A stretch of 43,791 nt of DNA from Myxococcota bacterium (GCA_038041915.1 JBBTFH010000022.1:6569-50359); one strand, 5' to 3'. Shown: positions 6,289 through 27,761, counted from the stretch's first letter. Notes: generated by a model not told the origin, from the sequence alone. Numbers and translations: made by a program.

Positions 6289-6360
6289 TGCCGCGCGGCC
6301 GATCCGAAGGCATTTGACACCCGGATGCGCCGGCGCGTAACGTTTTGTGCGGAGGTTTCA

Positions 6361-6897: not shown

Positions 6898-6991
6898 CTC
6901 TCGGGACAATTTTCGGCCCACGAGCGACGAATTTCAGCCCCCACAACCCACTGCGTGTCAGCAGATACGACTACTTAGACTCTCTCAAAAG

Positions 6992-7007
6992 CGGCATGTT
7001 TCTTGCT
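6992..7007 (+). promoter_or_regulatory. Sigma-54 (-24/-12) promoter upstream of the first PilA-type pilin
   Basis: cGGCATG-tttc-TTGCT. GG at 6993-6994 and GC at 7005-7006 sit in the exact register of the consensus TGGCACG-N4-TTGCW. It lies in an AT-rich gap about 55 nt upstream of ATG 7062. Confidence 0.6.
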
Positions 7008-7061
7008 ACTAACTCTATCCAACGCAATCAGCCCCACACCGGGGCGGGAGGAGGAGTCAGC

Positions 7062-7604: not shown

Positions 7605-7627
7605 CCGTTGAACCTTCCGCATCGGAC

Positions 7628-7669
7628 CAGGGCGCCGATCATGATGGTCGGCGCCCTGTCTTTCTTTCC
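7628..7669 (+). terminator. Intrinsic terminator or attenuator hairpin directly after pilA copy 1
   Basis: Perfect 11-bp stem CAGGGCGCCGA/TCGGCGCCCTG (7628-7638 and 7648-7658) with a 9-nt loop TCATGATGG, followed by TCTTTCTTTCC. Confidence 0.65.
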
Positions 7670-8540: not shown

Positions 8541-9111
8541 CCCTGCGTCGACCGAGCCAAACGAGGTTGGGGACGTCGGCGGTTTCACGCTGATCGAGAT
8601 GATGGTGGTGGTCGTAATCATCGGCCTGCTCGCGTCCGTCGCAGTCCCCGCGTACGTTCGCTACATGCGCCGGGCGAAGACGACGGAGGTCAGCGAGGCG
8701 CTCGACAAGATCTCGAGCGGCGCGCGCGTCTACTTCCAGGTGCCGCACATCGATCCGGCGACGGGAGCGACGCTTCCGCGGCAGTTTCCCGATTCGGAGG
8801 CGCTCACGCCCACTACGGGCGCGTGCTGCACTCCGCCGGGCGAACGCTGCTCCGCCGACGGCGCGAACTGGACGACGGCGCCGTGGACCTCGCTCTCCTT
8901 CAGCCTCGAGGGACCGCACTACTACCAGTACCAGTTTGTTTCGGTGGGCACGGATCTGGCGGGAACCTTCACGGCCATCGCGGTGGGTAATCTCGACTGC
9001 GATACCGTCGAGGCGACCTTCCAGCGCCGCGGTCGAGCCATCGACGAAGAAGGGCGCGTCCAGGTGGTCGAGCGGCAGGTCCTGGGCGGCGCGCACATGG
9101 AGATTGAGTAG
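8530..9111 (+). CDS. pilA: Type IV pilin, PilA-like (copy 2)
   Basis: ATG 8530 within track ORF 8113-9111. Leader MPTSPASTEPNEVGDVGG then FTLIEMMVVVVIIGLLASVAVPAY. Shares LDKISxGAxVYFQ, W(Q/T)SLSF, HYYQYQF and GNLD blocks with copy 1. Ends ...HMEIE. Confidence 0.85.
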   Translation: MPTSPASTEPNEVGDVGGFTLIEMMVVVVIIGLLASVAVPAYVRYMRRAKTTEVSEALDKISSGARVYFQVPHIDPATGATLPRQFPDSEALTPTTGACCTPPGERCSADGANWTTAPWTSLSFSLEGPHYYQYQFVSVGTDLAGTFTAIAVGNLDCDTVEATFQRRGRAIDEEGRVQVVERQVLGGAHMEIE

Positions 9112-11584: not shown

Positions 11585-13153
11585 TCAAGGGGTTGCCCTC
11601 CCCGTCGCCTGGCGGAGGCGCGCCGCGCGGCCGGCGGCCACGCGCCCGGCGTCGATGGGGAGGCGCGCCAGCGAGTCGAGCAGGCGCAAGGCGTCATCGG
11701 TGGCGCCGCTCCGCGCCAGCGCGTCGGCCAAAGCCAGCCGGCACTCGACGTCGCGCGGTCGAGCGGCGCAGGCGCGCCGTAGCGCGCCAACGGCCTCGCC
11801 ATGCCGCCCGAGGCTGCCGAGCGCGGTGCCCTCGTTGAACCAGGCATCGGCGAAGGACGGGTCGAGCGTTCGGGCCACGCGCAGCTCGTGGAGCGCCTCG
11901 TCGATCCGGCCGCGCTCGGCGAGCACGGCGCCCAGGTTGGCGTGAGCGCGCGCGGATGCCGGCGAGACGCGCGTGGCGTCGGCCCACAGGTCGAGCTCGT
12001 CGGCCCACACCCGGGACCGCCGCGCGGTCGCCGTGCAAAGCACGAACGCGAGCGTCACGGCCCCGGCGACGGCGATGGCCGGGCGCGCACGCGCCGCGAC
12101 GCGCTCGAGCGCGATGGCGACCGCGACGATCGGTCCGACCGACGGAAAGTAGAGGTGGCGTTCCGCGAGCACGTCGGCGAACGGGACGATCGAGTTGGTC
12201 GGCGCGATCGTGACGGCGAACCACCCGATGGCGAGCGCGAGCAGCGGCGCCCGCCCGCGCGCCGCGGCCCAGGCCCACAGCGCGAGCGCGGCGGCCACGG
12301 TCAGCGCCGGCAGAACGAAGGACGGCTCGAACCAGCCGGCCGGCAGTGGCAGCGCGTGCTCGACCGTCTGCCCGACCGGCCACACGAGGAGACGCGCAAG
12401 CGAAAGGATCGCGGCCGGCTCGGCACGCAGATGCGCGGCGGCTTGCGGAACGGACGCGCCGATCGTGCCGGCGTGCGGGCTCGGGAAAACGGCGAAGATC
12501 AGCGGGAGCGCGAGCGCCGCCGGCACCAGCAGCCACGCGCGGCGGCGCGGCGCGCCCGCACGCGGCAGCACGACCAGCCACGCGAGCGGCGCGAGCACCG
12601 CACCGACCTCCTTGGCGCCCACGCAAGCGACGGCGAGCAGCGCCGCCGCCGCGCCACCCAGGCGCCCGAGGCCTGGACGCGCCGCGACGAGGAGAGCGCC
12701 GAGGCCCAGGAGCGTGCACAAGATGCCCGAACGGCTGTTGACGTAGGCGACCGACTCGACGTGCACGGGATGGAGCAGGAAGATGCTCGCGGCCAGCAGC
12801 GCCGCGGGAGATGCCGCGCCCAGGCGCCGGGCGAGCAGCGCCACCAGCGCGCCGCACGCGAGATGAAGCGCCAGGTTGGTCGCACGAAACGGCAGCGGCC
12901 GCACGCCGAAGATTCCGGCGTCGAGCGCGAGCGAGAGGTTGTAGACGGGACGCGTTCCCTGCCAACCCGAGAAGAGCACGCCGACCAGATCTCCGGGCTT
13001 GCGAAGCGCCGCGTTGCGCGCGACGTGAGGGAGATCGTCGAAGACGAACGGCCCGCGGAGAGACGGTGCGTAGGCCAGCACCGCGAGCGCCGCACCCGCG
13101 GCGAAGGTCGCCGCCGCGACACGGCCTTGGATCGCTAGGCTTCCTCGATCCAC
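11585..13153 (-). CDS. Polytopic membrane GT-C-type glycosyltransferase-like protein with C-terminal TPR repeats (paralogue of 2119-3588)
   Basis: Track ORF 11585-13492 trimmed, because its 5' part overlaps the cyclophilin gene out of frame. Candidate starts are GTG 13153 or GTG 13081. Contains [15 protein letters not shown] block, many TM helices, and TPR repeats at the C-terminus ([30 protein letters not shown]...). Confidence 0.75.
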
Positions 13154-13614
13154 ACGCGGCGCATGATGTCGCCTGCGCGGATCTTCTGGACGACGTCCAA
13201 GCCCTTGACCACGCGACCGAAGACGGTGTGCTTGCCGTCGAGGTGCGGCTGGGCTCCTCGGCACACGAAGAACTGGCTGCCGCCCGTGTCGGGGCCCGCG
13301 TGCGCCATCGAGAGGCTGCCGTCGAGGTGCTTGTTCGGGTTGATCTCGCACTTGATCTTGAAGCCGGGCCCGCCGGTGCCGTTGCCGACCGGGCAGCCGC
13401 CCTGGTTGACGAAGCCCTCGATCACGCGGTGGAAGGTCAGCCCGTCGTAGAAGGGCCGCTTCACCTTGCCCCCGGTCTTCGGATCGGCCCATTCCTTGGT
13501 GCCGGCCGCCAGTCCGACGAAGTTGGCGACCGTGTTCGGCGCGTCCTTCTCGTAAAGCTCGATGACCATCTCACCGCGATCCGTCTCGATGTGCGCTTGC
13601 TTCATCCTCGTCAT
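13135..13614 (-). CDS. Peptidyl-prolyl cis-trans isomerase, cyclophilin type (no signal peptide)
   Basis: [30 protein letters not shown] and [12 protein letters not shown] signature blocks. Confidence 0.9.
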
Positions 13615-13626
13615 CCTCCTCTTGCG

Positions 13627-14928
13627 CTAACCCGCCAGCGCCTCCGCCGGCTCCATTCGCGCCGCGCGCCGCGCGGGAACGAAGGCGCCCGCGAGCGCGC
13701 AGACAACCGCGAGCGCGACGGAGCCTAGCAGAAGCGCGGGCGGGAAGTGAAAGTAGGTCGCAGGCTTGAAGGGAAAGTCGGGTAGCGCGCGCGCGGCGCA
13801 GAAGTCGCAGGCGCGGGCCGCCGCCCAGGCGAGCGCGAGGCCGCCGACGCCGCCGACGAGACCGACCACGCCCGCCTCGCCCAGCACGATCGCGCGCACG
13901 TCGCCGCGGCTCGCCCCGACCGCGCGCAACACGCCGATCTCGCGACGACGCTCGGCGACGATCATCAGGAACGTGTGCGCCACGCCGAGCGCCGAGACCA
14001 CGATCATCGCCACGCTGATCAGCGCGAACAGCAGCGTGCCGAGCGTGACGAACAGGCCGACCCGCTCGGCCTCGGACTCCGCTTGCTCGAGGCCGAGAGA
14101 CTTCACGTGCGCGACGAAGGACGTCGCGTCGCGCTTGTCGCGCACGCGCACGACGATGCTCGAGTACTCGCGCGCCTCGCGATCGCCCGCCCATCGCGCA
14201 TTCCAGCGCCGCACGTAACCGAGCGGCACGGTCATGCCGAGCGTCATCGCCTTGTCGCTGATGCCGACGAGGCGGAAGCGGCGCTGCGCGGGCGCGGCGC
14301 GCGACGAGGTATCGCCGAGGTACGAGCGGCCGAGCTCGACGGTGAAGGTCACGCCGTGAAAGCTGCTCGTCATCCAGTCGCGGATGAGCGGCCAGCCGTG
14401 CGCCTTTGCGATCGAGCCGTTGTAGAGCTCGAGCAGGTGTCGCGACACGATCACGGGCACGGGCCGGTCGGCATCGGACGTGTCGGCCTCAAAATCGGAA
14501 AACTCTCCTCCCGGCAACTCGCCGGCGACCAGCCGCGGGTCGATCCCGTCGAGGAATCCCGACACTTCGAAGGCGAAGTCGCGCCCGAGCAAGCTCTTGC
14601 CACCCCATCCGCGCGCGGGAAAGGCCAGCTTCATCTTGGGGTGAACGGCGCGCACGTCCGGTCGCCCGGCGAGCCGGCGCGCGACGCCGTCGTCGAGCTC
14701 GACGCGGCGGCCGAGGAGGTCAGCCGCGAGGCTCGCCCTCGGCGCTACCACCTCGAGGCGGTCGAGCGGGAAGATCTCGCCGAGCAGAAGCCGCCGTGCC
14801 CCGGCGCCGAGCGCGAGGAAGAAGGTGAGCGTCCCGATCCCGACGACGATGCCGGCGGACGCGAGCGCGTGGGAGCGCGCGTGACGACGAAGATTCTCGC
14901 CGACCAGCCGCGCGAGCTTGCGGTTCAC
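13627..14928 (-). CDS. ABC transporter permease, FtsX/MacB-type
   Basis: Track ORF 13627-15660 trimmed to GTG 14928, which overlaps the ATPase stop (GTGA). N-terminal TM, large extracytoplasmic domain and a C-terminal FtsX-type helix bundle. Confidence 0.85.
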   Translation of the reverse strand: MNRKLARLVGENLRRHARSHALASAGIVVGIGTLTFFLALGAGARRLLLGEIFPLDRLEVVAPRASLAADLLGRRVELDDGVARRLAGRPDVRAVHPKMKLAFPARGWGGKSLLGRDFAFEVSGFLDGIDPRLVAGELPGGEFSDFEADTSDADRPVPVIVSRHLLELYNGSIAKAHGWPLIRDWMTSSFHGVTFTVELGRSYLGDTSSRAAPAQRRFRLVGISDKAMTLGMTVPLGYVRRWNARWAGDREAREYSSIVVRVRDKRDATSFVAHVKSLGLEQAESEAERVGLFVTLGTLLFALISVAMIVVSALGVAHTFLMIVAERRREIGVLRAVGASRGDVRAIVLGEAGVVGLVGGVGGLALAWAAARACDFCAARALPDFPFKPATYFHFPPALLLGSVALAVVCALAGAFVPARRAARMEPAEALAG

Positions 14929-15626
14929 GGCACGATCCTCCCATCCTCGAGGCGAATCGTCCGGCTGGCGGCGCGGGACACGCGCTCCTCGTGGGTGACG
15001 ACGACCAGCGTCAGGCCGTCCTCGGCGACGATGCGGGAGAAGAGCGCGATCACCTCCTCGCCCGTGTCGGCGTCGAGGTTGCCGGTCGGCTCGTCGGCGA
15101 AGACGATCGACGGCCGCGTGAAGAGGGCGCGCGCAATCGCCACGCGCTGCCGCTGGCCGCCCGACAGCGCCCCCGCCTTCGTGCCGGCAAGCGAGCCGAG
15201 CCCGACGCGCGTGAGGGCCGCGCCCGCCCGGCCGCGGGAATCCCGATCGTCGGCGGACGCCGCGGCGAAGAAGCTCGGCAGCCGCACGTTCTCGAGGCAG
15301 GTGAGCGGCTCGAGCAGGTTGAAGCACTGGAAGACGAAGGCGACCCGCTGGTTGCGGAAGCGCGAGAGAGCGCGATCCGGCAGCGCGGCAAGGTCGAACC
15401 CCGCGACGCGAGCGTCGCCGCGGTCTGGCCGACACAGGCCGCCGGCGACGTTGAGCAGCGTGGTCTTTCCCGAGCCGCTGCGGCCATTGATCGCCACGAA
15501 CTCGCCCGCTTCCACCCGCAGCGACAGGCCGCGCAGGACCGGCTGGCGGCCATACGATTTCTCGATGCCCTGCAGCTCGATGATCGGCGCCGGCAACGCG
15601 GCGGATATAGCACATGGACTGGACAT
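14925..15626 (-). CDS. ABC transporter ATP-binding protein (LolD/MacB-type)
   Basis: Walker A GRSGSGKTT, signature LSGGQRQR, Walker B IVFADEPTGNLD and H-loop VVTHE. Start ATG 15626 (alternative 15641). Confidence 0.9.
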   Translation of the reverse strand: MSSPCAISAALPAPIIELQGIEKSYGRQPVLRGLSLRVEAGEFVAINGRSGSGKTTLLNVAGGLCRPDRGDARVAGFDLAALPDRALSRFRNQRVAFVFQCFNLLEPLTCLENVRLPSFFAAASADDRDSRGRAGAALTRVGLGSLAGTKAGALSGGQRQRVAIARALFTRPSIVFADEPTGNLDADTGEEVIALFSRIVAEDGLTLVVVTHEERVSRAASRTIRLEDGRIVP

Positions 15627-15697
15627 GGCTCGTCCGGGCATCCGCGTGATAATGTGGCAACGTTCGTCGTGTCGTCGTCGATAATCAGAGTGGACGC

Positions 15698-16015
15698 ATG
15701 AAGATCCAAGGCCCCGGCGATACCCCGCCTGCCTCGCCGACCGAGGCCGGCGGCGCGGAGGCTTCCGCGCCCGTGGCTGCCACCGAGCCGACACGCGAAG
15801 CGGCCGGGGTCGACGCGCTGCGGGCGCTCGCGGAGGATCTGCGCACGGGTCGGATCACGTCCGGGCAGGCGCTCGACCGTCTGGTCGAACGCGCGGTCGC
15901 CCAGGTTGCGGGCGCTGCCAGTTCGGACACGCTCGAGCGACTGCGCGCCGCGCTGCTCGACCTCGCGACGCGCGACCCGATCCTCTCCGAGAAGCTGCGC
16001 CGGCTCGACCGTTAG
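15698..16015 (+). CDS. Small hypothetical protein (105 aa), the only plus-strand gene in this block
   Basis: ATG start and good GC3. Disordered Pro/Ala N-terminus followed by helical repeats. No family recognised with confidence. Confidence 0.5.
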   Translation: MKIQGPGDTPPASPTEAGGAEASAPVAATEPTREAAGVDALRALAEDLRTGRITSGQALDRLVERAVAQVAGAASSDTLERLRAALLDLATRDPILSEKLRRLDR

Positions 16016-16047
16016 CCGTCCGACGGGACGCTCCGCGAACGCCGCGG

Positions 16048-17514
16048 CTAGAAGCTCGCCTTCGCGCCCAGATAGATCTCGTCGTTGCGATCGTAGAAGG
16101 CGCCGAGGCTCCCTTCGCGTCCTTCGAAGACGTGGGCGCCGGCGCGCAGCGACCACGTATCCGACACGCGATAGACGACCTGCGGGCTCGCGACCAGCGA
16201 CCGGCGCGTCGCTTCGAGCACGGCGAGCGCGCGCAGCTCGAGATCGCCGTCCATGAGCGCCCAGCGCAGCAGCAACGCGGCGCCGTAGAGACTTGGACCG
16301 CCGAAGAGCAACTCCTGCCCCTCCGGGTCCTTGAGCATCCGCTGGTGGAACGCCTCGGCGTGCAGCACCACGTCCTCGACACCCGCGTACTCGACGCCGA
16401 GCGTGGTGTCGACCGCGCCGCTGTCGATCGACGGACGAAAGTGTTCGTCGTCGATCGAGCGCAGCGGGAAGGCCCCGCCGAGCGGGTACTCGCGGCGCGG
16501 CGTGAAGGCGCCGTCGGCGCGCACGCCGAAATCGCCGAGGTTGGTGCCAAAGCTCGCGCCCGCTGATAGCGAGCGCCGGTAGTACGCGCGATACCCCGCG
16601 CGCGCGGCGTCGAAGTCGCCGGCGGCGAGCGCCGCGAACGCGTCGGCGTCGATCTCGATCGTCGGCAGACGCGCCCATCCGTAGAAGACCTGCGCCGCGA
16701 CGTCGTAGCCGCCGGCGCTCGAAGAGAGGCGCGCGCCCACGGATCCGTTCGCGGCCGTCTCGTCGGGCATCTCCGTCTGCAGCAGCACGGGCTGCGCCTT
16801 ATCCTCGATCGAGTCGTCGATCGAGTCGTCGAGCGCGTCCGCGAAGCCGCGCAGCGCCGCCGGTGCGCCCGGGCCGAAGAGCGCCCAGTCGCCGCCGAAG
16901 AGATCGACCCGGTCGGCGCGAAAGAACGGCACCCACAGCGCCTCCGCCGAAAGCGGACCTACCGGCGCGCGCGCGCGCAGCGCCACGACCGGAAGCCGCG
17001 CCGTCTCCGGCTCGAGGGAGACGCCGTGTCGGCGGTCGCGTGGGTTCACGACGTCGTTCGGGTTCACCAGATCGTTTTGACCCCAGACGACGATCAGGTG
17101 TCCGGCGGTGAGCGCGACCCGCGCAAGGTCGGCGTCGACGAACGCTTCGCCCAGCGTCGCCTCGTGCTCGGCCTTCCAGCGCTCGCCGTTCGCAATCACG
17201 AGCGCGTCGTCTCCGCGCTCGCCCGTCAGCCACCAGTCGAGCCAGCCGTCGAGGTGCAGCCTGAGGCGCGAGACGCGGTAGTCGGCGCGCGCGAAGGCCT
17301 GCGCACGGAGCGTCATCGCGTCCTCGCGCACGTCCGTCTCCTGCACCGTGTCCTGCGCAAGCTCCGTCGAGAAGAAGCCCCCGGCCTGCGCCTCGGGCGC
17401 GAAGCCCTCGGCCGCAGAGCTAGAGCCGCGGCCGGGGCCGCCCTCGTCGTCAGCGATAATCTCGATCTGCGCGCTTGCCGCGGTCGCGACGAGCGACGCG
17501 AGCGCACGGGACAC
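16048..17514 (-). CDS. Putative outer-membrane beta-barrel protein (DUF1302-like by recollection)
   Basis: Track ORF 16048-18087 trimmed to GTG 17514, which overlaps the upstream TAG by 1 nt. Signal-like VSRALASLVATAASAQ. Block HLIVVWGQNDLVNPNDVVNPRD. C-terminal ...YLGAKASF (terminal aromatic residue). Confidence 0.7.
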   Translation of the reverse strand: MSRALASLVATAASAQIEIIADDEGGPGRGSSSAAEGFAPEAQAGGFFSTELAQDTVQETDVREDAMTLRAQAFARADYRVSRLRLHLDGWLDWWLTGERGDDALVIANGERWKAEHEATLGEAFVDADLARVALTAGHLIVVWGQNDLVNPNDVVNPRDRRHGVSLEPETARLPVVALRARAPVGPLSAEALWVPFFRADRVDLFGGDWALFGPGAPAALRGFADALDDSIDDSIEDKAQPVLLQTEMPDETAANGSVGARLSSSAGGYDVAAQVFYGWARLPTIEIDADAFAALAAGDFDAARAGYRAYYRRSLSAGASFGTNLGDFGVRADGAFTPRREYPLGGAFPLRSIDDEHFRPSIDSGAVDTTLGVEYAGVEDVVLHAEAFHQRMLKDPEGQELLFGGPSLYGAALLLRWALMDGDLELRALAVLEATRRSLVASPQVVYRVSDTWSLRAGAHVFEGREGSLGAFYDRNDEIYLGAKASF

Positions 17515-18299
17515 TAGCCCTGCTCGAGCTTCTGGACGGTGAAGTCGCTGACCGGGATGTCGTCGCGAAAGTCGATCTTCTCGATCACGAACGTCGTCGC
17601 GTGCGACTTGTCGGCCGCCTCCATGCGCGACTCGGTAATGACGATCTTGCCCTCCACCGTCTCGATGCGGCTTACGGAGAGCGTCTTCACGAGCTTTCCG
17701 CCGGCGCCGTAGAAGCGCGTCCTGACGCCGACGCCGTTGTCCTGCCGAATCCACGTCTCGAGGCGCGCATACGGCGATCCGGCGCCCTTTTGCGGGGTGG
17801 CCTCGATCACCCAGCACGGCTTGCCGGGGTGCCTCACCCCGTCCGACGGGACGCAAGCGGCCTCCTCTCCCTTCAAGCGGTAGCTCGCCTCCTCGATGTC
17901 GCGTCCCTCGAGGTCGGCGTAGGAAAAGTCGCTGCCCATGAAGCTCTGGTTCTTCTGGCCTCCGCTGATGCGCCGCACGCGGCGCAGCGCGGGCAGCCAC
18001 AGGAACTGGTCGTCGTCGCGTCCTTTGTTCTCGATCAGCAGGAAGCGCGTGCCGGCGACGTCCGCGGGAGAGAGGAAGTTGACCCACGAGCGCGCGAGCC
18101 CGCCCTCGGCGCGGCTTTTCACGTAGAGGCGCCGGTCGCGCTTCTCGCCGCGCTTGTTCTCGAGCACCATGCGCACCTGCATCTCGGCGCCACCCGTGCG
18201 GAAGGCGACGTGATCGAGCGAGCGCCGGACGATCGCCGCCGGGTCCTCGGCCGCCGCCACGCCGGCGGCGAGCACCGCCGCGAGCACGCGAGCCGTCAT
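17514..18299 (-). CDS. LolA-like outer-membrane lipoprotein-sorting family protein
   Basis: Track ORF trimmed to ATG 18299 (MTARVLAAVLAAGVAAA signal). Blocks FLWLPALRRVRRISG and SFMGSDFSYADLEGR match my recollection of the LolA_like family. ATGA overlap with the upstream gene. Confidence 0.8.
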   Translation of the reverse strand: MTARVLAAVLAAGVAAAEDPAAIVRRSLDHVAFRTGGAEMQVRMVLENKRGEKRDRRLYVKSRAEGGLARSWVNFLSPADVAGTRFLLIENKGRDDDQFLWLPALRRVRRISGGQKNQSFMGSDFSYADLEGRDIEEASYRLKGEEAACVPSDGVRHPGKPCWVIEATPQKGAGSPYARLETWIRQDNGVGVRTRFYGAGGKLVKTLSVSRIETVEGKIVITESRMEAADKSHATTFVIEKIDFRDDIPVSDFTVQKLEQG

Positions 18300-18586
18300 G
18301 GCTCGTCCCGCTGGTTCATTCCCGCCGCGGTGTGGCGCGCCACCAGCTCGCGCGCGTGTGGCGAGAGGAACACGGCCTCGAGATCGAAGGTTGCGAGGGC
18401 ACGCGCGAGAACCGACACCTTCTCGCCCGGCGACGATCGCCGGTCGACGATCACGCGCCACTCGCCCTTCACCTTGCAGAGCCCGCCACTCGACATCCCT
18501 TCGCCGGTCAGCTCCGCGTAGACGACCTTCACGCCGACCTGCGCGCACGCGGCCTCGAGCTCCTCCTGGATCTTCGCGAGATTCAT
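18296..18586 (-). CDS. Small hypothetical protein (about 96 aa), translationally coupled on both sides
   Basis: ATG 18586 has AAGGAG 5-6 nt upstream; an in-frame GTG 18592 overlaps the upstream TGA. The stop overlaps the LolA-like ATG. No family recognised. Confidence 0.6.
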   Translation of the reverse strand: MNLAKIQEELEAACAQVGVKVVYAELTGEGMSSGGLCKVKGEWRVIVDRRSSPGEKVSVLARALATFDLEAVFLSPHARELVARHTAAGMNQRDEP

Positions 18587-18588
18587 GT

Positions 18589-20271
18589 TCACTCCTTCTT
18601 CTCCTCTTCCGCCGCCGCCTTGTCGAGGTCGAGGATCTCGGTGCCTCCGACGTACGGCTTGGTCTCGTAGCGGGTGATTCTGCCGATCTTGCGCACAATC
18701 TCGGCCATGCGCTCCGCCTCTCTCGCGATCGTGTCGATCGCGGGGCGCTGCGGATCGTCGGCGGCGATGCGCCGCCGCACCAGCTCGGCGTAGGCGAGGA
18801 TCGACGTCAGCGGTTGATTGAGCTCGTGCGCGGTCGTGCCGGCGAGTTGGGTCACCAGCGCCTGCTTCTCGCTGATCTCAAGCTTCTCCTGCGCGTGCCG
18901 CAGGCGCTCGGCGGTGCGCAGGTGCTCGCGCAGGTCCGAGAACACGCCGATGGTCGCGACCTCTTCGTCGCCCTCGTGGACGATCGCGGCGGCGAGCTGC
19001 ATCGGGATGATCTCGCCCGACTTTGAGAGCCCGTCATGGCGGCTCTCGACGATCCGTCCGCGTCCGCCGTGCTGCGCGCTGCGCAGCAGGCGCATCACCG
19101 CCTGCGCGCCGCCCGGCGGATACAGGCGTTCGACGGAGAGCCGGCCCACCACCTCGTCGGCGCTGTGGCCGTAGATGCGTTCGGCCGCCTTGTTGAAGAG
19201 GATGATCGTGCCCTCGCGATCGGCCGCGACGATGCCGTCGGGCGCCGAGTCGATGAGCTTGGCGAGGAAGTCTTTCGTGCGGCGCAGATCGATCTCCAGC
19301 GCGCGCGCCTGCGTGACGTCGCGGAAGTGGAGCAGCGCGACGTGCGAGTCCGAGAGCAGCGTCCCGATCGACGCCGAAACGACGAGCGGATCGCCGCTGG
19401 TCGTGCGCAGCTCGAGATCGAAGCTGGCGAAGCGCGCGCCACCGGCGGCCTCGCGCAGCATCTCGATCAGCATGCCGCGGTGGTGCTCGGCGACAATCGC
19501 GCTGAACGGCTGGCCCACCAGGCCCGTGCGCGAAAACCCGGTCATCTGAACGCCGGCGCGGTTCAGATAGATGATCAACCCTTCGGCGTCGAGCACGACC
19601 ATGCCGTCGGGCGCGGTCTCGAAGAGGTCGCGGTACTGCGCGAGGGCGCGGATGCGGCGCTCGGCCTCGATGCGGCTCAGCGCCACGCGATTGGTCTGTT
19701 CGCTGATCGCCTCGCGAAAGCGCGCCCCCGACAGCGCCAGGCCGAGCGCAGCCGCCGCGATTCGGCCGATCGTCTGGCGCGCCGGATCCAGGTCGGGCCG
19801 CTTCTCGCTGCGGCGGAAGAGCAGGACGGCGCGTGGGTGGCCCTCGACCAGCACCGGGAAGAGAAGCAGCGAGCCGATGCCGCGCGCGGTGATCAGCGCC
19901 GAGACTTCCTTCAGAAGGGGGTGATTGGGCGCGTCCTCCACGACCAGCGGCTGCGTCGACTGCAGCACGGCGGCGACCTCCGGGTAGCGGTCAAGCGCCA
20001 CCCTCAGGCGCGCGAGCGCCGGCTCGTCGCTGGCCGCGACGACGTGGAGCGTCCCCGGCTCTTCGCCGCGCAGGAACACGCTGCCGGTGTCCGCCTCGAG
20101 CGCGTCGCACGCGCGCGCGATGAACTCGTGCAGCGCCTGGCGCGCGTCCGCGCCGGTCGACAGGGCCTCGCAGATCGCCAGCGCCGTCGCCTCCAGTCCG
20201 GCGGGCTCGGAGAGCTTGCGCGTGGAGCGCGGCGTCGGAGTCCGGTCAAGCTCGGTGGTCTTGTGGTCCAT
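18589..20271 (-). CDS. GAF-PAS-PAS-HisKA signalling protein with no recognisable HATPase_c domain
   Basis: GAF-like N-terminus and two PAS-like modules (DGMVVLDAEGLIIYLN..., DGIVAADREGTIILFN...). H-box TAHELNQPLTSILAYAELV. The protein ends about 60 aa later (RITRYETKPYVGGTEILDL...EEEKKE*). Confidence 0.85.
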   Translation of the reverse strand: MDHKTTELDRTPTPRSTRKLSEPAGLEATALAICEALSTGADARQALHEFIARACDALEADTGSVFLRGEEPGTLHVVAASDEPALARLRVALDRYPEVAAVLQSTQPLVVEDAPNHPLLKEVSALITARGIGSLLLFPVLVEGHPRAVLLFRRSEKRPDLDPARQTIGRIAAAALGLALSGARFREAISEQTNRVALSRIEAERRIRALAQYRDLFETAPDGMVVLDAEGLIIYLNRAGVQMTGFSRTGLVGQPFSAIVAEHHRGMLIEMLREAAGGARFASFDLELRTTSGDPLVVSASIGTLLSDSHVALLHFRDVTQARALEIDLRRTKDFLAKLIDSAPDGIVAADREGTIILFNKAAERIYGHSADEVVGRLSVERLYPPGGAQAVMRLLRSAQHGGRGRIVESRHDGLSKSGEIIPMQLAAAIVHEGDEEVATIGVFSDLREHLRTAERLRHAQEKLEISEKQALVTQLAGTTAHELNQPLTSILAYAELVRRRIAADDPQRPAIDTIAREAERMAEIVRKIGRITRYETKPYVGGTEILDLDKAAAEEEKKE

Positions 20272-20286
20272 TACCCCGAGGCGCTC

Positions 20287-21912
20287 CTAGTTCGCCGCGC
20301 CCATCGTCGGCGTGGCATCGACGGTCCAGTCGCTCGCCTGATCGCCGCCGCCGTCATAGGCGATCGAGCTGCCGGCGGAAAGCCCGCCGACGGAGACGAA
20401 CTGGTCGTTGGTCCAGATGCCACCGGAGAGCGCGGCGGCCTCGCGCGTGTGGTTGGCGGCGCCCCACTGCACGTAGTCGCGGATGTTGGCGCCGTTCGAG
20501 AAGCCCGAGTTGTTCTGGAAAAGCGCAAGCTCTCCGTCGGCGTCGCCCAGGCCCGCCTTGGGGCCGGTGTAGATATCGGTCGCGGTGTTCGTCCCCGATT
20601 CGTTCCAATGGACGACGACATAGCCGCCCGCCGGGATCGTGATGCTCGGCAAACCCCAGTACGCCGCCGGGCCGATGCAGAGAAACCAGCCGGCCATCGG
20701 CGCGTCGATCGGCCCGAGGTTGGCCAGTTCGACCAGCTCGTCGTCGGCGCCCGCGGGCGCGAAGATCACCTCGCTCAGCACGACGTCGTTGCACCCGACC
20801 GAGCGGCTGGTCGTCGCCTCCGACACGTCCGTGCACCCGTCGTTGTCGTCGTCGTCGTCGCAGGCGTCGCCATCGGCGTCGCCGTCGAAGTCGAGCTGAT
20901 CGGCGTTCGCTGCCAGAGGGCAGTTGTCCGCGCCGTCAAGGTCGCCGTCGCCGTCGTCGTCGTCGTCGCAGGCGTCGCCGTCGCCGTCGCCGTCGGTGTC
21001 GAGCTGATCGGCGTTAGCCACGAGCGCGCAATTGTCGGCCGCGTCGAGGTCGCCGTCGCCGTCGTCGTCGTCGTCGCAGGCGTTGCCATCGCCATCGCCG
21101 TCGGTATCGAGCTGATCGGCGTTAGCCACGAGCGCGCAGTTGTCGTCCACGTCGTCCGTCCCGTCGTTGTCGTCGTCGGCATCGCAGGCGTCGCCGACGT
21201 TGTCGTCGTCGGCGTCAGCCTGATCGGCGTTGGGGACCAGAGGGCAATCATCGGCGCCGTCCGGCCAGCCGTCGTCGTCGGAGTCGATCTCGCCGTCGCA
21301 CGCGTCGCCGAGTCCGTCCTCGTCGTCGTCCGTCTGATCGACGTTGTCGACGACCGGGCAATTATCCTCGCCGTCGTCGATGCCGTCACCGTCGTCGTCG
21401 TCGTCGCAGGGATCGCCCGTGCCGTCGAGATCCAGGTCCGCCTGGTCGGCGTTGGGGAGCAGCGCGCAGTTGTCCGCCACGTCAGAGGCGCCGTCGCCAT
21501 CGTCGTCGTCGTCGCAGGCGTCGCCGTCGCCGTCGCCGTCCGTATCCGTCTGATCCGCGTCGGCGACGAGCGGGCAGTCGTCCGCTTCGCTAAGGACGCC
21601 GTCGCCGTCGTCGTCGTCGTCGCACGCGTCACCGTCGCCGTCACTGTCGGTGTCGCTCTGGTCGGCGTTCGCGAGCGACGGGCAGTTGTCCTCGCCATCG
21701 GACACGCCGTCATCATCCGCGTCGTCATCTTCCGACTCGGATTCGGATTCGGATTCCGACTCGGATTCGGACTCCGCCTCGGATTCCGCCTCGGACTCGG
21801 CCTCGGACTCGGCCTCGGACTCGGCCTCGGACTCCGCCTCGCCCTCGGCCTCCCCGCTCTCTCCGCACGCGGTGGCCAGCAGCAATCCCCAAACAAGCAA
21901 ACGCACGCGCAT
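20287..21912 (-). CDS. Acidic lipoprotein with about 8-9 thrombospondin type-3 (calcium-binding) repeats and a C-terminal lamin-tail-like (LTD) domain
   Basis: ATG 21912 with AAGGAGG 7 nt upstream. Lipobox LLLATAC. (AESE)n/(SE)n linker. Repeats of the form [31 protein letters not shown]. C-terminal [22 protein letters not shown]...GELALF block typical of LTD domains. Confidence 0.85.
21731..21852 (-). repeat. Coding hexa/dodecanucleotide microsatellite (GAxTCx units) encoding (SE)n and (AESE)n
   Basis: Plus strand reads ccgactcggattcggattcggattccgactcggattcggactccgcctcggattccgcctcggactcggcctcggactcggcctcggactcggcctcggactccgcctcg. Confidence 0.8.
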
Positions 21913-22128
21913 CGCTAGCCTCCTTTATCGTCCCATGTTTCACCGCGGCTCATCGAATGAACAGGGTGACTTTTATCGGACCTTGCGTCCAACCGCCAGC
22001 GCGCCTACAGGCCGACACGCACACGATCTTCCACCGCTCGCCGATTGAGTGGATCGACGTCCCGCGCCCGGTCTCTGACCTGGCCGAAACTCGCACCCCG
22101 TGCGAGCGCGCGCTTCGCGCTGGCAAGA

Positions 22129-22143
22129 AGCAACGGGCGTGCC
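22129..22143 (-). promoter_or_regulatory. Sigma-54 (-24/-12) promoter upstream of the TSP3/LTD lipoprotein gene
   Basis: Minus strand reads cGGCACG-cccg-TTGCT, with GG at 22143-22142 and GC at 22131-22130. Apart from the first T this is a full match to TGGCACG-N4-TTGCW. It sits 11 nt after the upstream stop and about 200 nt before ATG 21912. Confidence 0.55.
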
Positions 22144-22154
22144 GGAGCGGGTCC

Positions 22155-22916
22155 TTACTCGTCGCCCTCTTCCGACTCGCTCTCCTCACCGTCTTCGTCC
22201 TCGAACTTCCCGTCTTTTTCGTCGTCGTGGTCGTCGTGGTCGTCGTCATCGTCATCATCGAAACGGACGCCACCGGCCACGACCTCGTCGTCGCCGCCGG
22301 GCTCTCCATCGCGATCGACGTCGCGGTAGAGCGTCGCCGAAGCGGCGACTCCGTCGAGGAAGCGGTCGATTGCGCCATCGTTGGCCTCGCCGTCCAGGCG
22401 CGCCGAGCCGTCCACGATCGGCAGCTCCTCGGGAGCGATGCCCGCGAGCAGCACGGCGCGGTCGAAGACGATGATCGCCGCCGCGTCGTCCGCGATTCCC
22501 GAGTCCTGTGCTTCGAACGCCAGGGCAAACGGGCGCTCCGGCGTGATCCGCAGCGGCGTGCCGTCGGCGAGCGCGCCGGTCCAGTCGATCGCGTCGACCT
22601 CGAGACGCACGCCGCAGAGAGGCTGCGTTCCCGGCAGGACGGCGACTTGCGCGAACCCGTCCGAGGCGAGGTCCACTTCCGCCAGCGGCTCGTCGATGAC
22701 TTCCTCGCTCGCGCCGCCGCCGCCGTCGCACGCCTTCGCCCGGGATGCGACGACGCGCGCGCTCGAAACGGGGGCGCGCTGTAGCCGCGGCTGATCGGCC
22801 GAGGGCTGTCCCGTGGCGCCGAGGTAGAGCGCGACGCCGTTGCCGGTTTCCGTCCCGACTTGCGGCGAGCACGCGGCGAGCAGGATGGCGAAAGATCCGA
22901 TTCGAGCGAGGATCAT
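22155..22916 (-). CDS. Lipoprotein with an extremely acidic C-terminal tail
   Basis: Track ORF 22155-23369 trimmed to ATG 22916 (MILARIGSFAILLAAC lipobox). ATGA overlap with the upstream gene. Tail DDDDDDDHDDHDDEKDGKFEDEDGEESESEEGDE. Confidence 0.7.
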   Translation of the reverse strand: MILARIGSFAILLAACSPQVGTETGNGVALYLGATGQPSADQPRLQRAPVSSARVVASRAKACDGGGGASEEVIDEPLAEVDLASDGFAQVAVLPGTQPLCGVRLEVDAIDWTGALADGTPLRITPERPFALAFEAQDSGIADDAAAIIVFDRAVLLAGIAPEELPIVDGSARLDGEANDGAIDRFLDGVAASATLYRDVDRDGEPGGDDEVVAGGVRFDDDDDDDHDDHDDEKDGKFEDEDGEESESEEGDE

Positions 22917-23815
22917 GGCTGGCTCCTGTCCTTCTCCCGGCGCGGGCGTGGCGCCGAGCCGCCGGGACGGCGCGTGAGCGGGAAGAGCTGAATGTTGAGC
23001 TGGTACACGGCTTCGCGCGCTTCGCCAGCGTCGCACGCGCACATGGCTTCCAGCAGCATGCGGCGAAGCTCGTGTACGCGGGCGACGATTTGCGCGGCGC
23101 GCGCGCGCGACATGGCCACCGTCAGGCTGCTCGCGTGGCGCTCCTCCACCGGCAGGCGATCGAGGGCCTCTTCGGCGCGCTGGATCATCGCGCGGTGGAA
23201 ATTGCGGACGGCGAGCGATTTCACCTCGGGGCCCGTCGACAGCACGGCGTCCGCCTGGACGAGTCGGCCGTCGCCGTCGCGCCGCAACAGATCGAGCCGC
23301 AGCAAGAGGTCGAGGCTGTCGGCGGCCTGCGCCGGCGTGATGGCCGGCTCGAGCTGGCGCGCGATCCACGCCGGCTCTTCGCGAAAGCCTTCCACGGCGA
23401 CGAGCTCGCGAATCGGCGGGGCGTACCAGGTGGAGTAGTAGTCGTACTCGTCGCGCTCCAGCCGGCGCACGCGCAGGTAGCTTTTCATGTGGCTGAGACG
23501 GTCGTAGTGGAGGTTGCGCTCGCCTTCGCTGCGCGCCTGCTCCATGAGTACGAGGTGGGTGAAGAACTCGCGCTGCGCGCGATCGAGGCGCAGCGCCTTG
23601 GCGAAGCGCAGGATGCTCGAAGGCGTGAGGTTGCGCCGGCCGTCCATCACGAGCTTGAGGTAGTTGGGCGCGGCGAACCCGGCCTGGCGCGCGAAGTACC
23701 GGTGCGAGAATTGCGGCTTGGTCGCCTTGAGGAAGGCGTAGGTGTCGCGCAGGAACGCCCGATAACTGCGATAGGCGAAGAGGTCGGGCTCCTGCGGGGG
23801 CGGGGTCGTCGTCAC
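22913..23815 (-). CDS. TIGR02147/DUF4423-type protein (putative HTH regulator)
   Basis: YRSYRAFLRDTYAFLKATKPQFSHRYFARQAGFAAPNYLKLVMDGRRNLT matches my recollection of the TIGR02147 N-terminus. Start placed at GTG 23815, because the track's upstream extension to 23917 runs through an AT-rich promoter-like region containing a palindrome. Confidence 0.75.
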   Translation of the reverse strand: MTTTPPPQEPDLFAYRSYRAFLRDTYAFLKATKPQFSHRYFARQAGFAAPNYLKLVMDGRRNLTPSSILRFAKALRLDRAQREFFTHLVLMEQARSEGERNLHYDRLSHMKSYLRVRRLERDEYDYYSTWYAPPIRELVAVEGFREEPAWIARQLEPAITPAQAADSLDLLLRLDLLRRDGDGRLVQADAVLSTGPEVKSLAVRNFHRAMIQRAEEALDRLPVEERHASSLTVAMSRARAAQIVARVHELRRMLLEAMCACDAGEAREAVYQLNIQLFPLTRRPGGSAPRPRREKDRSQP

Positions 23816-23872
23816 GAGCGTGTCCAGAATGCCGGTATGAGCGCGAGGGCGCAAGCCATAAAGAGCAATAAT

Positions 23873-23892
23873 CCGTATTCTGGAGAATACGG
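23873..23892. promoter_or_regulatory. Perfect palindrome CCGTATTC-TGGA-GAATACGG in the AT-rich divergent region
   Basis: 8-bp arms with a 4-bp spacer. Located between TATAAT/TATTAT-like hexamers (23903-23909) and the TIGR02147-type gene start. Candidate operator. Confidence 0.4.
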
Positions 23893-24023
23893 ACATAAGT
23901 CGTATAATATGTAGCATATCATCATGTTATAACTGATTCGTGACGTTTGTCATGTGTGCTCATGATGCTTGACGGAATTCACCCGGGAGGCCAGAGTGCA
24001 TGCAAGAAAGGGAGGGCAAACCC

Positions 24024-24713
24024 ATGCACCTCAGACTCACGACGATTTCACTTCTGCTTCTGGCCGGGTGTCCGAGCGAAGACGAGGCGGCCGACGGCGA
24101 GGCCACCGGCGGGCTTCTCTGCGACGACGCCGACGACGGCACGACGACGTGCGGCACCGACGAGAACGGCAACGGTGCCCTCGACGAGGCCGAGGTCGCG
24201 TGCAGCGACAACGATCCCGCGGAGACGGGGGAGAAGGACGATGACGGGGAGAAGCACGATGACGGGGAGAAGGACGACGACGACGTGGAGTGCAAGGACG
24301 GCGTCGATGCGAAGACCGGCGCCGCGTGCGAGGACGACGATGAGGGCGAGGAAGAGGAGAAGGACGACGACGACGTGGACTGCAAGAACGGCGTCGATGC
24401 GAAGACCGGCGCCGCGTGCGAGGACGACGACGAGGGCGAGAAGGAAGAGGACGAAAAGGACAAGGACGATGACGAAGACGGGAAGAAGAACGACGACGAC
24501 GACGGGGAGAAGGACGACGACGACGCCGAGGAGAAGCTCGAGGACGACGACGGCGACGGCATCCTCAACGGCTCCGACTGCGACGAGGTTCTGAAGGACA
24601 CGGAGGAGGGCGGCGAGTACGAGGATGACGAAGACGATGACGACGACGATGACGAGGACGCCGACGATGACGAGGATGAGGACGACGACGACGACAAGAA
24701 GGACGACGCCTAA
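24024..24713 (+). CDS. Extremely acidic (Asp/Glu-rich) lipoprotein with an internal tandem duplication
   Basis: ATG 24024 preceded by GGGAGGG. Lipobox LLLLAGC. Repeated module DDDDV(E/D)CK(D/N)GVDAKTGAACEDDDEGE. Poly-D/E tail. Confidence 0.75.
   Translation: MHLRLTTISLLLLAGCPSEDEAADGEATGGLLCDDADDGTTTCGTDENGNGALDEAEVACSDNDPAETGEKDDDGEKHDDGEKDDDDVECKDGVDAKTGAACEDDDEGEEEEKDDDDVDCKNGVDAKTGAACEDDDEGEKEEDEKDKDDDEDGKKNDDDDGEKDDDDAEEKLEDDDGDGILNGSDCDEVLKDTEEGGEYEDDEDDDDDDDEDADDDEDEDDDDDKKDDA
24270..24449 (+). repeat. Two tandem 90-bp in-frame repeat units inside the acidic lipoprotein gene
   Basis: Units start at 24270 and 24360. The first roughly 81 nt differ at only 3 positions by eye. Confidence 0.8.
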
Positions 24714-25589: not shown

Positions 25590-26240
25590 TCAGTACCCGT
25601 ACCCGCCGCCGGGCGTCTTCTTGGGCTTGGGCTTCGCCGCGGGCGCCTCGTCTTCGGCCGCCTCGGGCGCGGCGAGATCGTCGAGCGTGAAGAAGCCACG
25701 CACGGCAATCGGCGCGGCGCCGAAGAACGTGCCGGCGGTCGAGTCGAGGAGGTCTTCGTGCAGGACGACGCCCTGCGCGGGGCCGACGGTGAGGCCGACC
25801 TCGTAGCCGGCGCGCGAGACGCCGACGTCCGAGCCGAGGTCGAGGTCGGTGGCATAGTGCCAGCCCTCGGCGATGCCGACGACGGGCAGCAGCGGCGCCT
25901 CGAACGCGTCGCCGGTGTCGACGTTGGTGAGCGTCAACGCGACGTCGAGATAGGGGACGAAATCGCCCGCGTTGCGGCCGCCGAGAAGCGGGCCGGCGTA
26001 GCGGATCTGCGCCTCGAAGTGGTACGTGCCGGCGGCGACGTCGGCGGGAGGGATGCCCCACGCCTCGGTGAGCGACGCGATCTCGAACTTCAGCGTCGCG
26101 GCGCCGCCGGCGATCGGCGTGGCGTCGATGACGACGACCTCTTCCTCGAGAGAGGGCAGCTCCGTCGCCTCCGTCGGGATCGGCTGGTCCTCGCACGCGG
26201 CGAGAAGCAGGAGGGTAGGGATGAGGGTCAGGCGCTTCAT
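25590..26240 (-). CDS. Lipoprotein consisting of a P19/FetP-like (Iron_transport-type) domain
   Basis: Lipobox LLLLAAC. Blocks YHFEAQIRYA, GGRNAGDFVPYLDV and AEGWHYATDL resemble the P19 blocks HLEADIHA, PYL and DGPHYG as I recall them. Lys/Pro/Gly tail ...KPKPKKTPGGGYGY. ATGA overlap with the upstream gene. Confidence 0.7.
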   Translation of the reverse strand: MKRLTLIPTLLLLAACEDQPIPTEATELPSLEEEVVVIDATPIAGGAATLKFEIASLTEAWGIPPADVAAGTYHFEAQIRYAGPLLGGRNAGDFVPYLDVALTLTNVDTGDAFEAPLLPVVGIAEGWHYATDLDLGSDVGVSRAGYEVGLTVGPAQGVVLHEDLLDSTAGTFFGAAPIAVRGFFTLDDLAAPEAAEDEAPAAKPKPKKTPGGGYGY

Positions 26241-27751
26241 GGGATCACCTCCGTCTGCGCCAGCTCGTCGGCTTGGAGCAGGCCGTTCATCGTCGCGTTC
26301 AGGCTCTCGACCAGCGTCACGGCGTCGCCTTGCGCGAAGGTCGTGGAGTCGCGCTCCTCGAACGCCTGAATCAGCACGGCGTCGTCGTCGGCGGCGAAGA
26401 GGTACGCGATCGTCCGGTAGAACGCGCGCGCCTCGACGCGCGCCTTGTTGTAGCCGGCGTCGTCGGCCACGAGGATCTTCTCGCGCATTGCGATGATCTC
26501 GTGGACGACCGCGAGGTACTCGACCTGGAGCAGCTCGCGTTCGACCACCGCGCGCGCCGCGTCGAAGCCGGCGCCGCCGCCGATGAGGATCGCGTTGGCG
26601 CCGCTAAGCAGCGCGGCCTCGATCGCCGCCTCCATGCCGCAGGCGATGCCGGCGCCGAAGCGGCCATCGTCGCAGTTCGTCTGCCGCTTGCCCGCCGTCG
26701 CTTCGAGCGCGCGAAAATACGCCCACGCCTCGTCCCACTTGTGCGCGGCGCCCTCCACCGCGTCGAGCGCGCCCTCGGCGATCGCCCGGCGCGCCTCGTC
26801 GATCTCGTGAAGGATCGACAGGTAGAACGCGCGCTCGATGCCCTTCTTGATCCATTCCTTGCACTCGGACGCGACGACCGCGCCGCCGGTCAAGCAGTCG
26901 GGCGCCGGGCCCGTCTGCGCGAGCGCGCTCTCGACGTTGGTCGAGAGATCGGCGAGCTGGGCTTCCGTGATCCCGCGCGCCGCGTCGTAGCCGGCGACAT
27001 CCATGCGCCCCTCGAACATGCCGGCGAGCGACGCCTCGAAGCTCGCCGCGGCGCCGGAAAAGTCATTCGCGTCGAGCGCCGCGAGGATGTCGGCGTAGGC
27101 GGCCACGCGATCGAGCTGCTCCTCGACGTCTCCGACCGGCATCTGCAAAATGCCGCCGAAGGCGACGTCACGGTCGAAGAGGACCAACGGCTCGACGCGC
27201 GCGAACAGTCCGGACGGCGGCGAGGCGTCCGCGTGCGTGGCGATCGTCATCGCGGGCGCAAGCGTGACCGTCACGCGGTACGCGTCCTCGAACGGATCGG
27301 CTTCGGAGTCGCCGGGTGGCAGGAGCACGTTGGAGGCGTAGTGCCAGCCCTCGGCGTGGCCGGCGTGAGGCACGAGGTCCATCTCGATGGTGTCGTCGGC
27401 GGACGCGGTGGTGGTGTTGACGATCGTGACGTGCACCTTCTGGTAGGGCACGAACTCGCCGGCGTTGCGGCCGCCGAGCACGTTCGCCGCCGCGTAGCGG
27501 AGCTGGAGCTCGAGATGGAAGTCGGCCAGGCCGTCCATCTCGACACCGTTCAGCAGCGTCGGGACGGTGAAGTCGAGCGGAGCCGCCTCCAGCTCCGCCT
27601 CGACGGCGCCGCCGTAGAGATCGTTCTCGGAGAGCACCTGCTCGGCCGCGAGCGCGCGCGTGCGCGGGTGCTGCGGCGGGCCTCCGGCCTCTTCGGCCTC
27701 TTCGGCGCGCGCCGCGGTGGCGCACAGCAATGCGAAGGTCAGTCGTTTCAT
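26237..27751 (-). CDS. Secreted protein: N-terminal P19/FetP-like domain fused to a long helical C-terminal domain
   Basis: ATG 27751 with a GAGAGGA Shine-Dalgarno sequence. Signal MKRLTFALLCATAARA. Blocks FHLELQLRYA, GGRNAGEFVPYQKV and AEGWHYASNV are paralogous to 25590-26240. I do not recognise the C-terminal roughly 300 aa, which are helical (KWDEAWAYFRA, LHEIDEA, VHEIIAM). Confidence 0.7.
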   Translation of the reverse strand: MKRLTFALLCATAARAEEAEEAGGPPQHPRTRALAAEQVLSENDLYGGAVEAELEAAPLDFTVPTLLNGVEMDGLADFHLELQLRYAAANVLGGRNAGEFVPYQKVHVTIVNTTTASADDTIEMDLVPHAGHAEGWHYASNVLLPPGDSEADPFEDAYRVTVTLAPAMTIATHADASPPSGLFARVEPLVLFDRDVAFGGILQMPVGDVEEQLDRVAAYADILAALDANDFSGAAASFEASLAGMFEGRMDVAGYDAARGITEAQLADLSTNVESALAQTGPAPDCLTGGAVVASECKEWIKKGIERAFYLSILHEIDEARRAIAEGALDAVEGAAHKWDEAWAYFRALEATAGKRQTNCDDGRFGAGIACGMEAAIEAALLSGANAILIGGGAGFDAARAVVERELLQVEYLAVVHEIIAMREKILVADDAGYNKARVEARAFYRTIAYLFAADDDAVLIQAFEERDSTTFAQGDAVTLVESLNATMNGLLQADELAQTEVIP

Positions 27752-27761
27752 GTTTTTCCTC

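Follow-up and report, generated by a model that had tools for sequence, protein, structure and literature searches.

The question raised by this locus is whether five genes, packed closely on one strand behind a site that resembles a sigma-54 promoter, constitute a dedicated envelope system or an assemblage of parts with separate histories. The genes lie in a stretch of 43,791 nucleotides (nt) from a Myxococcota bacterium (GCA_038041915.1 JBBTFH010000022.1:6569-50359), referred to here as the window, which has a G+C content of 70%; near-identical DNA is present in metagenome runs, all of them from groundwater, and none was found in RNA runs. Named G1 to G5 from the promoter-proximal end (Table 1), they encode a probable lipoprotein with TSP3 calcium-binding repeats, a sensor with a HisKA domain, a small protein, a LolA-like secreted protein and an outer-membrane beta-barrel. 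We have good confidence that the string, probably co-transcribed, is an operon restricted to one lineage, present in a single groundwater genome of Polyangia, and that it joins three independently evolving modules. These would be the orphan lipoprotein G1, a G2-G3 signalling pair conserved across Polyangia and a G4-G5 cassette. With comparable confidence, the five-gene combination is regarded as a mosaic rather than a new envelope system, because it occurs in no other genome examined.

The five minus-strand genes were recovered both by a codon-usage gene call and by the database gene calls of the matching contig in the metagenome-assembled genome GCA_964365345.1, in agreement with the coordinates of the initial annotation of this DNA. 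Reading of the sequence also upheld three of the junctions described there, namely the 15-nt gap between G1 and G2 (20272-20286), the 4-nt ATGA overlap of G3 with G4 (18296-18299) and the 1-nt TAG/GTG overlap of G4 with G5 at 17514. The remaining junction, described as a GTGA overlap at 18589-18592 with a G3 open reading frame of 18296-18592, had to be revised: given a G3 start at the ATG at 18586, G2 and G3 are probably separated by a 2-nt gap. This start is preferred here, with AAGGAG located 5 nt upstream of it, and it agrees with the 96-residue database call and the alignment of homologues. Contigs assembled independently from several runs read across all the junctions and the promoter region, so that the arrangement is not an assembly artefact; a chimera at the G1/G2 junction, considered separately, was ruled out in the same way.

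Table 1. Features of the G1-G5 string and its immediate surroundings; positions are counted from the first nucleotide of the window, and aa stands for amino acids
Feature	Position	Strand	Basis or character
G1, 541-aa probable lipoprotein	20287-21912	minus	signal peptide with Cys16 lipobox
G2, 560-aa cytoplasmic GAF-PAS-PAS-HisKA sensor	18589-20271	minus	domain profiles
G3, 96-aa cytoplasmic protein	18296-18586	minus	uncharacterised family, motif GGLCKVKGEWRVIVDKR
G4, 261-aa secreted LolA-like protein (PF17131, TP_0789-like)	17514-18299	minus	profile
G5, 488-aa outer-membrane beta-barrel, divergent DUF1302 relative	16048-17514	minus	homologues and model
Sigma-54-type -24/-12 match CGGCACGcccgTTGCT	22129-22144	minus	GG-N10-GC
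Putative leader/intergenic region before G1	21913-22128	minus	hairpin then UUUC at 22107-22084
Upstream pair: DUF4423/TIGR02147 protein	22913-23815	minus	profiles
Upstream pair: 253-aa acidic lipoprotein	22155-22916	minus	very acidic D/E/H-rich tail
Spacer between the convergent stops of G5 and the 105-aa gene	16017-16047		two GC hairpins, 16047-16033 and 16030-16017
Convergent 105-aa gene (c105)	15698-16015	plus	kept right after G3 in 22 related loci
Backbone, outside the string: ABC ATPase	14925-15626	minus	
Backbone, outside the string: FtsX/MacB-type permease	13627-14928	minus	
Backbone, outside the string: cyclophilin	13135-13605	minus	

The evidence for a mosaic comes from a synteny survey anchored on G3, which was chosen for its mid-string position and good conservation. 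The survey covered 80 species-level loci and several metagenome contigs, on each of which the window proteins and additional neighbours were mapped. All relatives retrieved via G3 belong to Polyangia (Myxococcota), among them Nannocystis, Haliangiales, Kofleriaceae and many uncultured genomes. For the idea that the five genes form a recurring system, failure of the order to recur had been named beforehand as the finding that would tell against it; the order was absent from the 80 species and from the metagenome contigs. G1 was found upstream of G2 in 0 of 80 species representatives and in none of the extra metagenome loci. G4 and/or G5 follow G3 elsewhere only in L010 and in the Logan contigs L089 and L090, and the order G2-[kinase]-G3-G4-G5 was seen elsewhere only in L010, a groundwater genome in which LarB-LarC-G2-kinase still stands upstream. 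L089, the closest metagenome relative, has three small genes between G2 and G3. At 3-71 of the same contig, the gene upstream of the G2 orthologue ends in RKTLYRKLEEYG, a typical Fis-type helix-turn-helix tail of a sigma-54 activator.

The order common in relatives is [kinase]-CNNM-CNNM-LarB-LarC-G2-[full PAS-HisKA-HATPase kinase]-G3, followed by c105 or by a lipoprotein gene that we call u211, then by ABC-FtsX-cyclophilin genes (ABC, ATP-binding cassette), a PEGA Ser/Thr kinase gene, and pilin and PilR genes. G2 and/or the full kinase stand directly upstream of G3 in 56 loci, counted over the 80 species representatives and the metagenome loci: G2 alone in 22, G2 together with the full kinase in 17, and the full kinase only in 17, at least two of these last being contigs cut within G2. 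LarC lies upstream of G3 in 47 loci, and examples of the block are found at L004 513-8288 and L010 1619-10290. The normal home of G2-G3 is the CNNM-CNNM-LarB-LarC-G2-[kinase]-G3 block. No description of a link between signalling, LarBC and CNNM genes was found in the literature.

These distributions bear directly on the reading in which all five genes form one dedicated sigma-54-controlled system, with the sensor and the small protein regulating an envelope module that exports or anchors a calcium-binding adhesin. The tight or overlapping junctions, one plausible -24/-12 element and the export signals carried by all three envelope proteins (G1, G4 and G5) are all consistent with such a system. 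Nevertheless, the combination is found in 0 of 80 related species while its parts occur separately, G1 has no orthologues, and G2-G3 usually have LarB/LarC/CNNM rather than envelope genes upstream, so that we consider a dedicated system very improbable.

G1 consists of an acidic (SEAE)n linker, eight TSP3 calcium-binding repeats and a C-terminal lamin-tail-like domain. The match to TSP_3 is strong (E = 1.3e-48; 162.8 bits for a cut-off of 25; eight stretches), and that to the lamin tail domain LTD (PF00932) reaches 29.2 bits (E = 1.3e-6), under the cut-off of 34.3. Secreted arrays of TSP3 calcium-binding repeats are also the hallmark that G1 shares with myxobacterial TSP3 surface proteins, such as MtsC, a MYXO-CTERM protein of cell-cell cohesion. 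Unlike these, G1 stays below the MtsC equivalog cut-off (NF047638; 213 bits, with 350 needed), shows no MYXO-CTERM sorting signal, and combines an N-terminal lipobox with the lamin-tail-like C-terminus. Relatives of the C-terminal domain were sought among 5.8 billion proteins, with none found beyond one fragment from the same species, and G1 is, as far as sequence comparison can tell, a lineage-specific orphan. At the promoter-proximal end of the string, it would provide a secreted calcium-binding TSP3/lamin-tail lipoprotein, probably located at the cell surface or in the matrix. Across 20840-21830, the TSP3 and (SEAE)n arrays yield spurious 'joints' and depth spikes with short metagenome contigs. 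Such joints in G1 were considered as assembly breaks and rejected as repeat artefacts of these arrays, and the copy number of the repeats may be unreliable.

The G4-G5 pair has a different background. G4 matches the LolA_like profile PF17131 with 184.7 bits (cut-off 30; E = 1.7e-54), is related to the solved structures 9tp6 (4.4e-32), 4z48 (1.5e-27) and 3bk5 (4.8e-20), and matches DUF1329 weakly. Its N-terminus reads MTARVLAAVLAAGVAAA followed by ED, with a signal peptide that ends in AAA directly before ED and no lipobox cysteine. G5 gave no match to PF06980 (DUF1302) or to any other Pfam family, even at E <= 1. Its homologues at 33-35% identity do match DUF1302; two of five family members match PF06980 (best E = 4e-11), and the precomputed PF06980 matches on homologues P0002-P0005 are weak. 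The structural model of G5 (predicted local distance difference test, pLDDT, 70) has about 18-20 strands, and Foldseek relates it to porins and AlgE with a probability of 1.00 and a template modelling (TM) score of about 0.48. A barrel fold of this kind has been reported for DUF1302, and a DUF1329-DUF1302 complex has been predicted, with no structure or biochemical function known (PMC13499233). The domain calls of the initial annotation were thus right across the string, with the provisos that LTD is sub-threshold and that DUF1302 is reached through G5 homologues only.

DUF1329/DUF1302 pairs of Proteobacteria, e.g. Shewanella Sama_1589/1588 and Pseudomonas putida PP_0766/PP_0765, offer the closest comparison, with a LolA/LolB-like gene adjoining the gene for an AlgE-like barrel of about 18 strands, often in association with an exporter. 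In published fitness data, these pairs are associated with RND/BNR genes as well as with phenotypes that concern the envelope or fatty esters, and envelope-component export or fatty-ester handling has been proposed for them. The pair in the window differs in having the order carrier then barrel, no BNR/RND partner in the window, a coupling to a cytoplasmic signalling pair, and a barrel that falls under all Pfam thresholds.

An adjacency of the G4-G5 type recurs in L002, in a Joint Genome Institute (JGI) contig and in L010. In L002 and the JGI contig the pair occurs without G1-G3, and in the latter it adjoins dciA. In L002 (1846-11734), it closes a nine-gene same-strand string with the order OEP-MFP-ABC-ABC-ABC2-ABC2-CAP-LolA_like-DUF1302. 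Here the carrier/barrel pair is truly attached to an exporter. A sigma-54-like site, TGGCATTGGTGTTGCT, lies 62 nt ahead of the nine-gene string, and a divergent MMPL gene is located upstream. The remark that LolA-like/DUF1302-like pairs are seen with exporters is borne out by the L002 string and by occurrences elsewhere (Price et al., bioRxiv 10.1101/072470). G4-G5 would accordingly be a mobile two-gene envelope cassette, in which the LolA-like protein is a carrier in the periplasm and the DUF1302-like protein a barrel in the outer membrane, and which presumably would move a hydrophobic molecule between periplasm and outer membrane. Its point of insertion would lie between G3 and c105, the small convergent gene that is, on the gene orders compared, the marker of the slot. 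The c105 protein belongs to no family, and its only match was to FliX at E = 0.028.

Could the pair nevertheless be tied to this neighbourhood? In seven loci, G3 is followed by u211, a gene for a lipoprotein of about 211 residues with a lipobox and no Pfam family (the loci include L007 861-1499, L008 8273-8908, L070, L077, L087 and L061), and the two genes share 4 nt in L007 and L008, where u211 takes the slot that G4 has in the window. An overlap of the same length joins G3 to G4 in the window and in both L010 and L089. These overlaps favour a reading in which G4-G5 occupy the u211 slot and work with the MacB/LolCDE-type ABC-FtsX transporter as a lipid or lipoprotein route tuned by the G2-G3 kinase module. 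So do the presence of ABC-FtsX after G3 in 15 loci, the similarity of its ATPase to LolD, DevA and MacB as nearest relatives, and the position of the G4-G5-type pair at the end of the exporter string of L002. We consider this reading unlikely, though less so than the dedicated five-gene system, in view of the conserved convergent gene that stands between G5 and the ABC genes, the absence of ABC-FtsX within 6 kb of G4-G5 in L010, and the many relatives, indeed most, that have ABC-FtsX but no LolA-like gene. The comparison with the LolA/LolCDE pathway leads to the same assessment. G4 falls into the LolA superfamily, and the adjacent ATPase and permease are nearest LolD and of the FtsX/MacB/LolC type, respectively; however, the transporter scores far below the equivalog cut-offs (193 against 308 for LolD and 50 against 362 for LolCE), forms a separate conserved unit beyond the convergent gene, and is accompanied by no LolB. 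Of what had been claimed about this transporter, its position next door stands, with the qualification that c105 separates it from G5; that the LolA-like module lies meaningfully beside it does not, as the ABC-FtsX-cyclophilin backbone is kept downstream of G3 in relatives with or without G4-G5.

Returning to the mosaic reading, the five genes are probably co-transcribed, as their spacing is tight. From G1 to G5 the junctions are, in turn, a 15-nt gap, a 2-nt gap (or an overlap of 4 nt) and overlaps of 4 and 1 nt, too close for internal promoters, and the promoter scan returned a single weak sigma-70-like match inside the string. The end of the transcription unit is likely the short spacer after G5, where the stop of c105 lies 32 nt past G5; its GC hairpins lack a U-tract, and the terminator scan did not pick them up.

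The start of the unit is less clear-cut. The site CGGCACGcccgTTGCT differs from TGGCACG-N4-TTGCW by one mismatch and has its GG and GC separated by 10 nt. It begins 11 nt past the stop codon that closes the lipoprotein gene upstream, and a distance of 217 nt separates it from the G1 ATG, which is preceded by a strong Shine-Dalgarno sequence, AAAGGAGG. It is the sole match in the window with at most one mismatch, for an expectation of 0.48 per window; 40 of 100 shuffles contain at least one such match, and related loci, 1.26 Mb in total, have 0.38 per 43.8 kb. Only its intergenic and correctly oriented position makes a chance origin unlikely: as intergenic DNA makes up only about 6.5% of the window, some 0.02 matches would be expected to fall there in the right orientation (arithmetic from the gene call and the match count). 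The 'near-perfect' sigma-54 promoter of the initial annotation is thus correct in geometry and well placed, but its sequence is not statistically distinctive alone. In form, CGGCACGcccgTTGCT agrees with the sigma-54 pilA promoters of Myxococcota, which are served by a PilR-type activator and share the pattern CGGCAyG-N4-TTGCT, and it resembles the pilA-proximal site CGGCATGtttcTTGCT (6992-7007), which lies 67 nt upstream of a pilin gene and beside a gene for a PilR/NtrC-type activator. It differs from the pilA promoter in its distance of 217 nt from the start codon, its position directly past a stop codon, the lack of an identified activator site and the lack of conservation. A search for enhancer-like repeats upstream of CGGCACGcccgTTGCT yielded nothing beyond repeats of the coding region and some inverted repeats, short and weak, and no sigma-54 sites were found before the G2-type operons of relatives. 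Compared with shuffled sequence, the 219-nt G1 leader shows no excess of folding (z = -0.97), and no Rfam families were detected in 15500-24100. Taken together, we give about even chances to CGGCACGcccgTTGCT being the working promoter of the string.

The competing account, to which we assign a somewhat lower but still substantial probability, holds that CGGCACGcccgTTGCT is fortuitous and that G1-G5 are read through from the upstream DUF4423-lipoprotein pair, or start at a promoter within the 242-nt gap that escaped recognition, so that the string would be part of a seven-gene unit or a sigma-70 operon. The upstream pair is a possible source of such read-through transcription. Its DUF4423/TIGR02147 gene (257 bits) overlaps by 4 nt the gene for the 253-residue lipoprotein, which has a strongly acidic D/E/H-rich tail, and a sigma-70-like promoter lies ahead of the pair at 23953-23924. 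This promoter, the lack of a strong terminator between the two units, the location of CGGCACGcccgTTGCT so close behind a stop codon, and a number of matches that shuffled and related DNA reproduce are all in keeping with a fortuitous site. The low expectation for a correctly oriented intergenic match and the close likeness to the site upstream of pilA argue for a genuine promoter, and the hairpin followed by UUUC in the putative leader could end an upstream transcript.

Some of these results weigh against the account of the string as an operon of three unrelated modules with its own promoter. The count of sigma-54 matches is within chance, both per window and per 43.8 kb of related loci, and, from its position 11 nt past a stop codon, any site for an enhancer-binding protein would fall in the upstream coding region. 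That G3 is repeatedly coupled to an envelope gene through a 4-nt overlap (G4 in three loci, or u211) hints at a real functional link, to which a purely mosaic view does too little justice. In addition, the survey was limited to species representatives and a few metagenome contigs, so that close relatives with G1 may exist unsampled.

The G2-G3 pair is the conserved core of the string. The HisKA match of G2 (2.5e-13) contains an intact FixL-type H-box, AHELNQPL, and a profile search found no HATPase_c, the ATP-binding catalytic domain. The same holds for 24 of 24 G2 orthologues examined: they keep the H-box AHELNQPL, lack HATPase_c and end about 30-80 residues past HisKA. The C-terminal tail RITRYETKPYVGGTEILDLDK is conserved, with RMAEIVRKIGRITRYETKxYVGxxxILDLDK common to the 24 orthologues. 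Because the ATP-binding domain is absent, G2 is predicted to be unable to autophosphorylate alone; it must then work with a complete kinase, or as a phosphatase or relay. No HATPase_c kinase was found among the window genes scanned. In 17 relatives, a full kinase gene sits between G2 and G3. G2 would sense through its GAF and PAS domains and, with its phospho-acceptor histidine retained, would be phosphorylated in trans by a complete kinase, heterodimerise with it, or act beside it as a phosphatase or phosphotransferase. The GAF-PAS-PAS input and the FixL-type dimerisation and phosphotransfer domain are those of HisKA-HATPase_c kinases of the FixL/AtoS/NtrB type, whereas the missing ATP-binding catalytic domain, an absence conserved in the orthologues, sets G2 apart from these classical sensor kinases. 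In its presumed inability to autophosphorylate, we take G2 to be functionally nearer to phosphotransfer proteins such as Spo0B and ChpT, but with sensory domains.

G3 belongs to a family of 1601 clusters at 50% identity, with the invariant motif GGLCKVKG. No Pfam or NCBIfam family was found for G3, no Pfam family for 31 members of its family, and no relative in the PDB by profile search. The structural model (pLDDT 83) has an alpha-beta3-alpha2 layout, and the Foldseek matches were weak throughout (E about 0.06), the best involving the N-terminal region of Mycobacterium tuberculosis PrpR, IrrE/PprI and MATCAP zincin-like folds. This faint resemblance to the N-terminal half of ImmA/IrrE-type zincins is at most a lead, as G3 has no HExxH. 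A distant family member of 212 residues is not beside a kinase; the G3-kinase link thus applies to the Polyangia core, and also to L092, a locus further removed, but does not extend to the family at large. Within the core, G3 would be an accessory protein of the kinase module. The biochemical roles of all the modules are those that we infer.

It is conceivable, if rather doubtful, that G2-G3 are the real unit of interest: together with the optional complete kinase, they would represent a new branched or split two-component module among LarB/LarC (nickel-pincer cofactor) and CNNM (Mg/Co efflux-type) genes, translationally coupled to u211 or G4. G2 would then be a sensor whose ATPase domain was lost throughout Polyangia while its phosphorylatable histidine was retained, always with a G3-family gene behind it. 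On this view, G3 may be a zincin/ImmA-IrrE-like domain devoid of catalytic activity whose role is to dock on the kinase.

Elsewhere in the window, a type IV pilin cluster at 4861-9111 comprises a gene for a PilR/NtrC-type activator (4861-6288) and N_methyl pilin-like genes (6361-6897, 7074-7604 and 8530-9111), and this neighbourhood is also kept beside the G3 block in relatives. On the other side of the string, two adjacent minus-strand genes (25590-27751) encode proteins with Fe2+ transport (PF10634) and Fea1-like domains, with an amine-oxidase-type flavoprotein gene upstream of them (27762-29186); the region 25590-29186 may be an iron-uptake cluster separate from the string.

For annotation, this locus illustrates that tight spacing and a consensus-like promoter do not amount to a 'system', as synteny across relatives parts a conserved signalling core from two accessory acquisitions. 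The analysis also adds myxobacterial members to the LolA-like/DUF1302-like outer-membrane pairs, which are still function-less. The sole element that might repay more work is the pair formed by the ATPase-less sensor and G3 in its LarBC/CNNM context, since a sensor of this kind with a small-protein partner represents a possible new wiring of two-component signalling.

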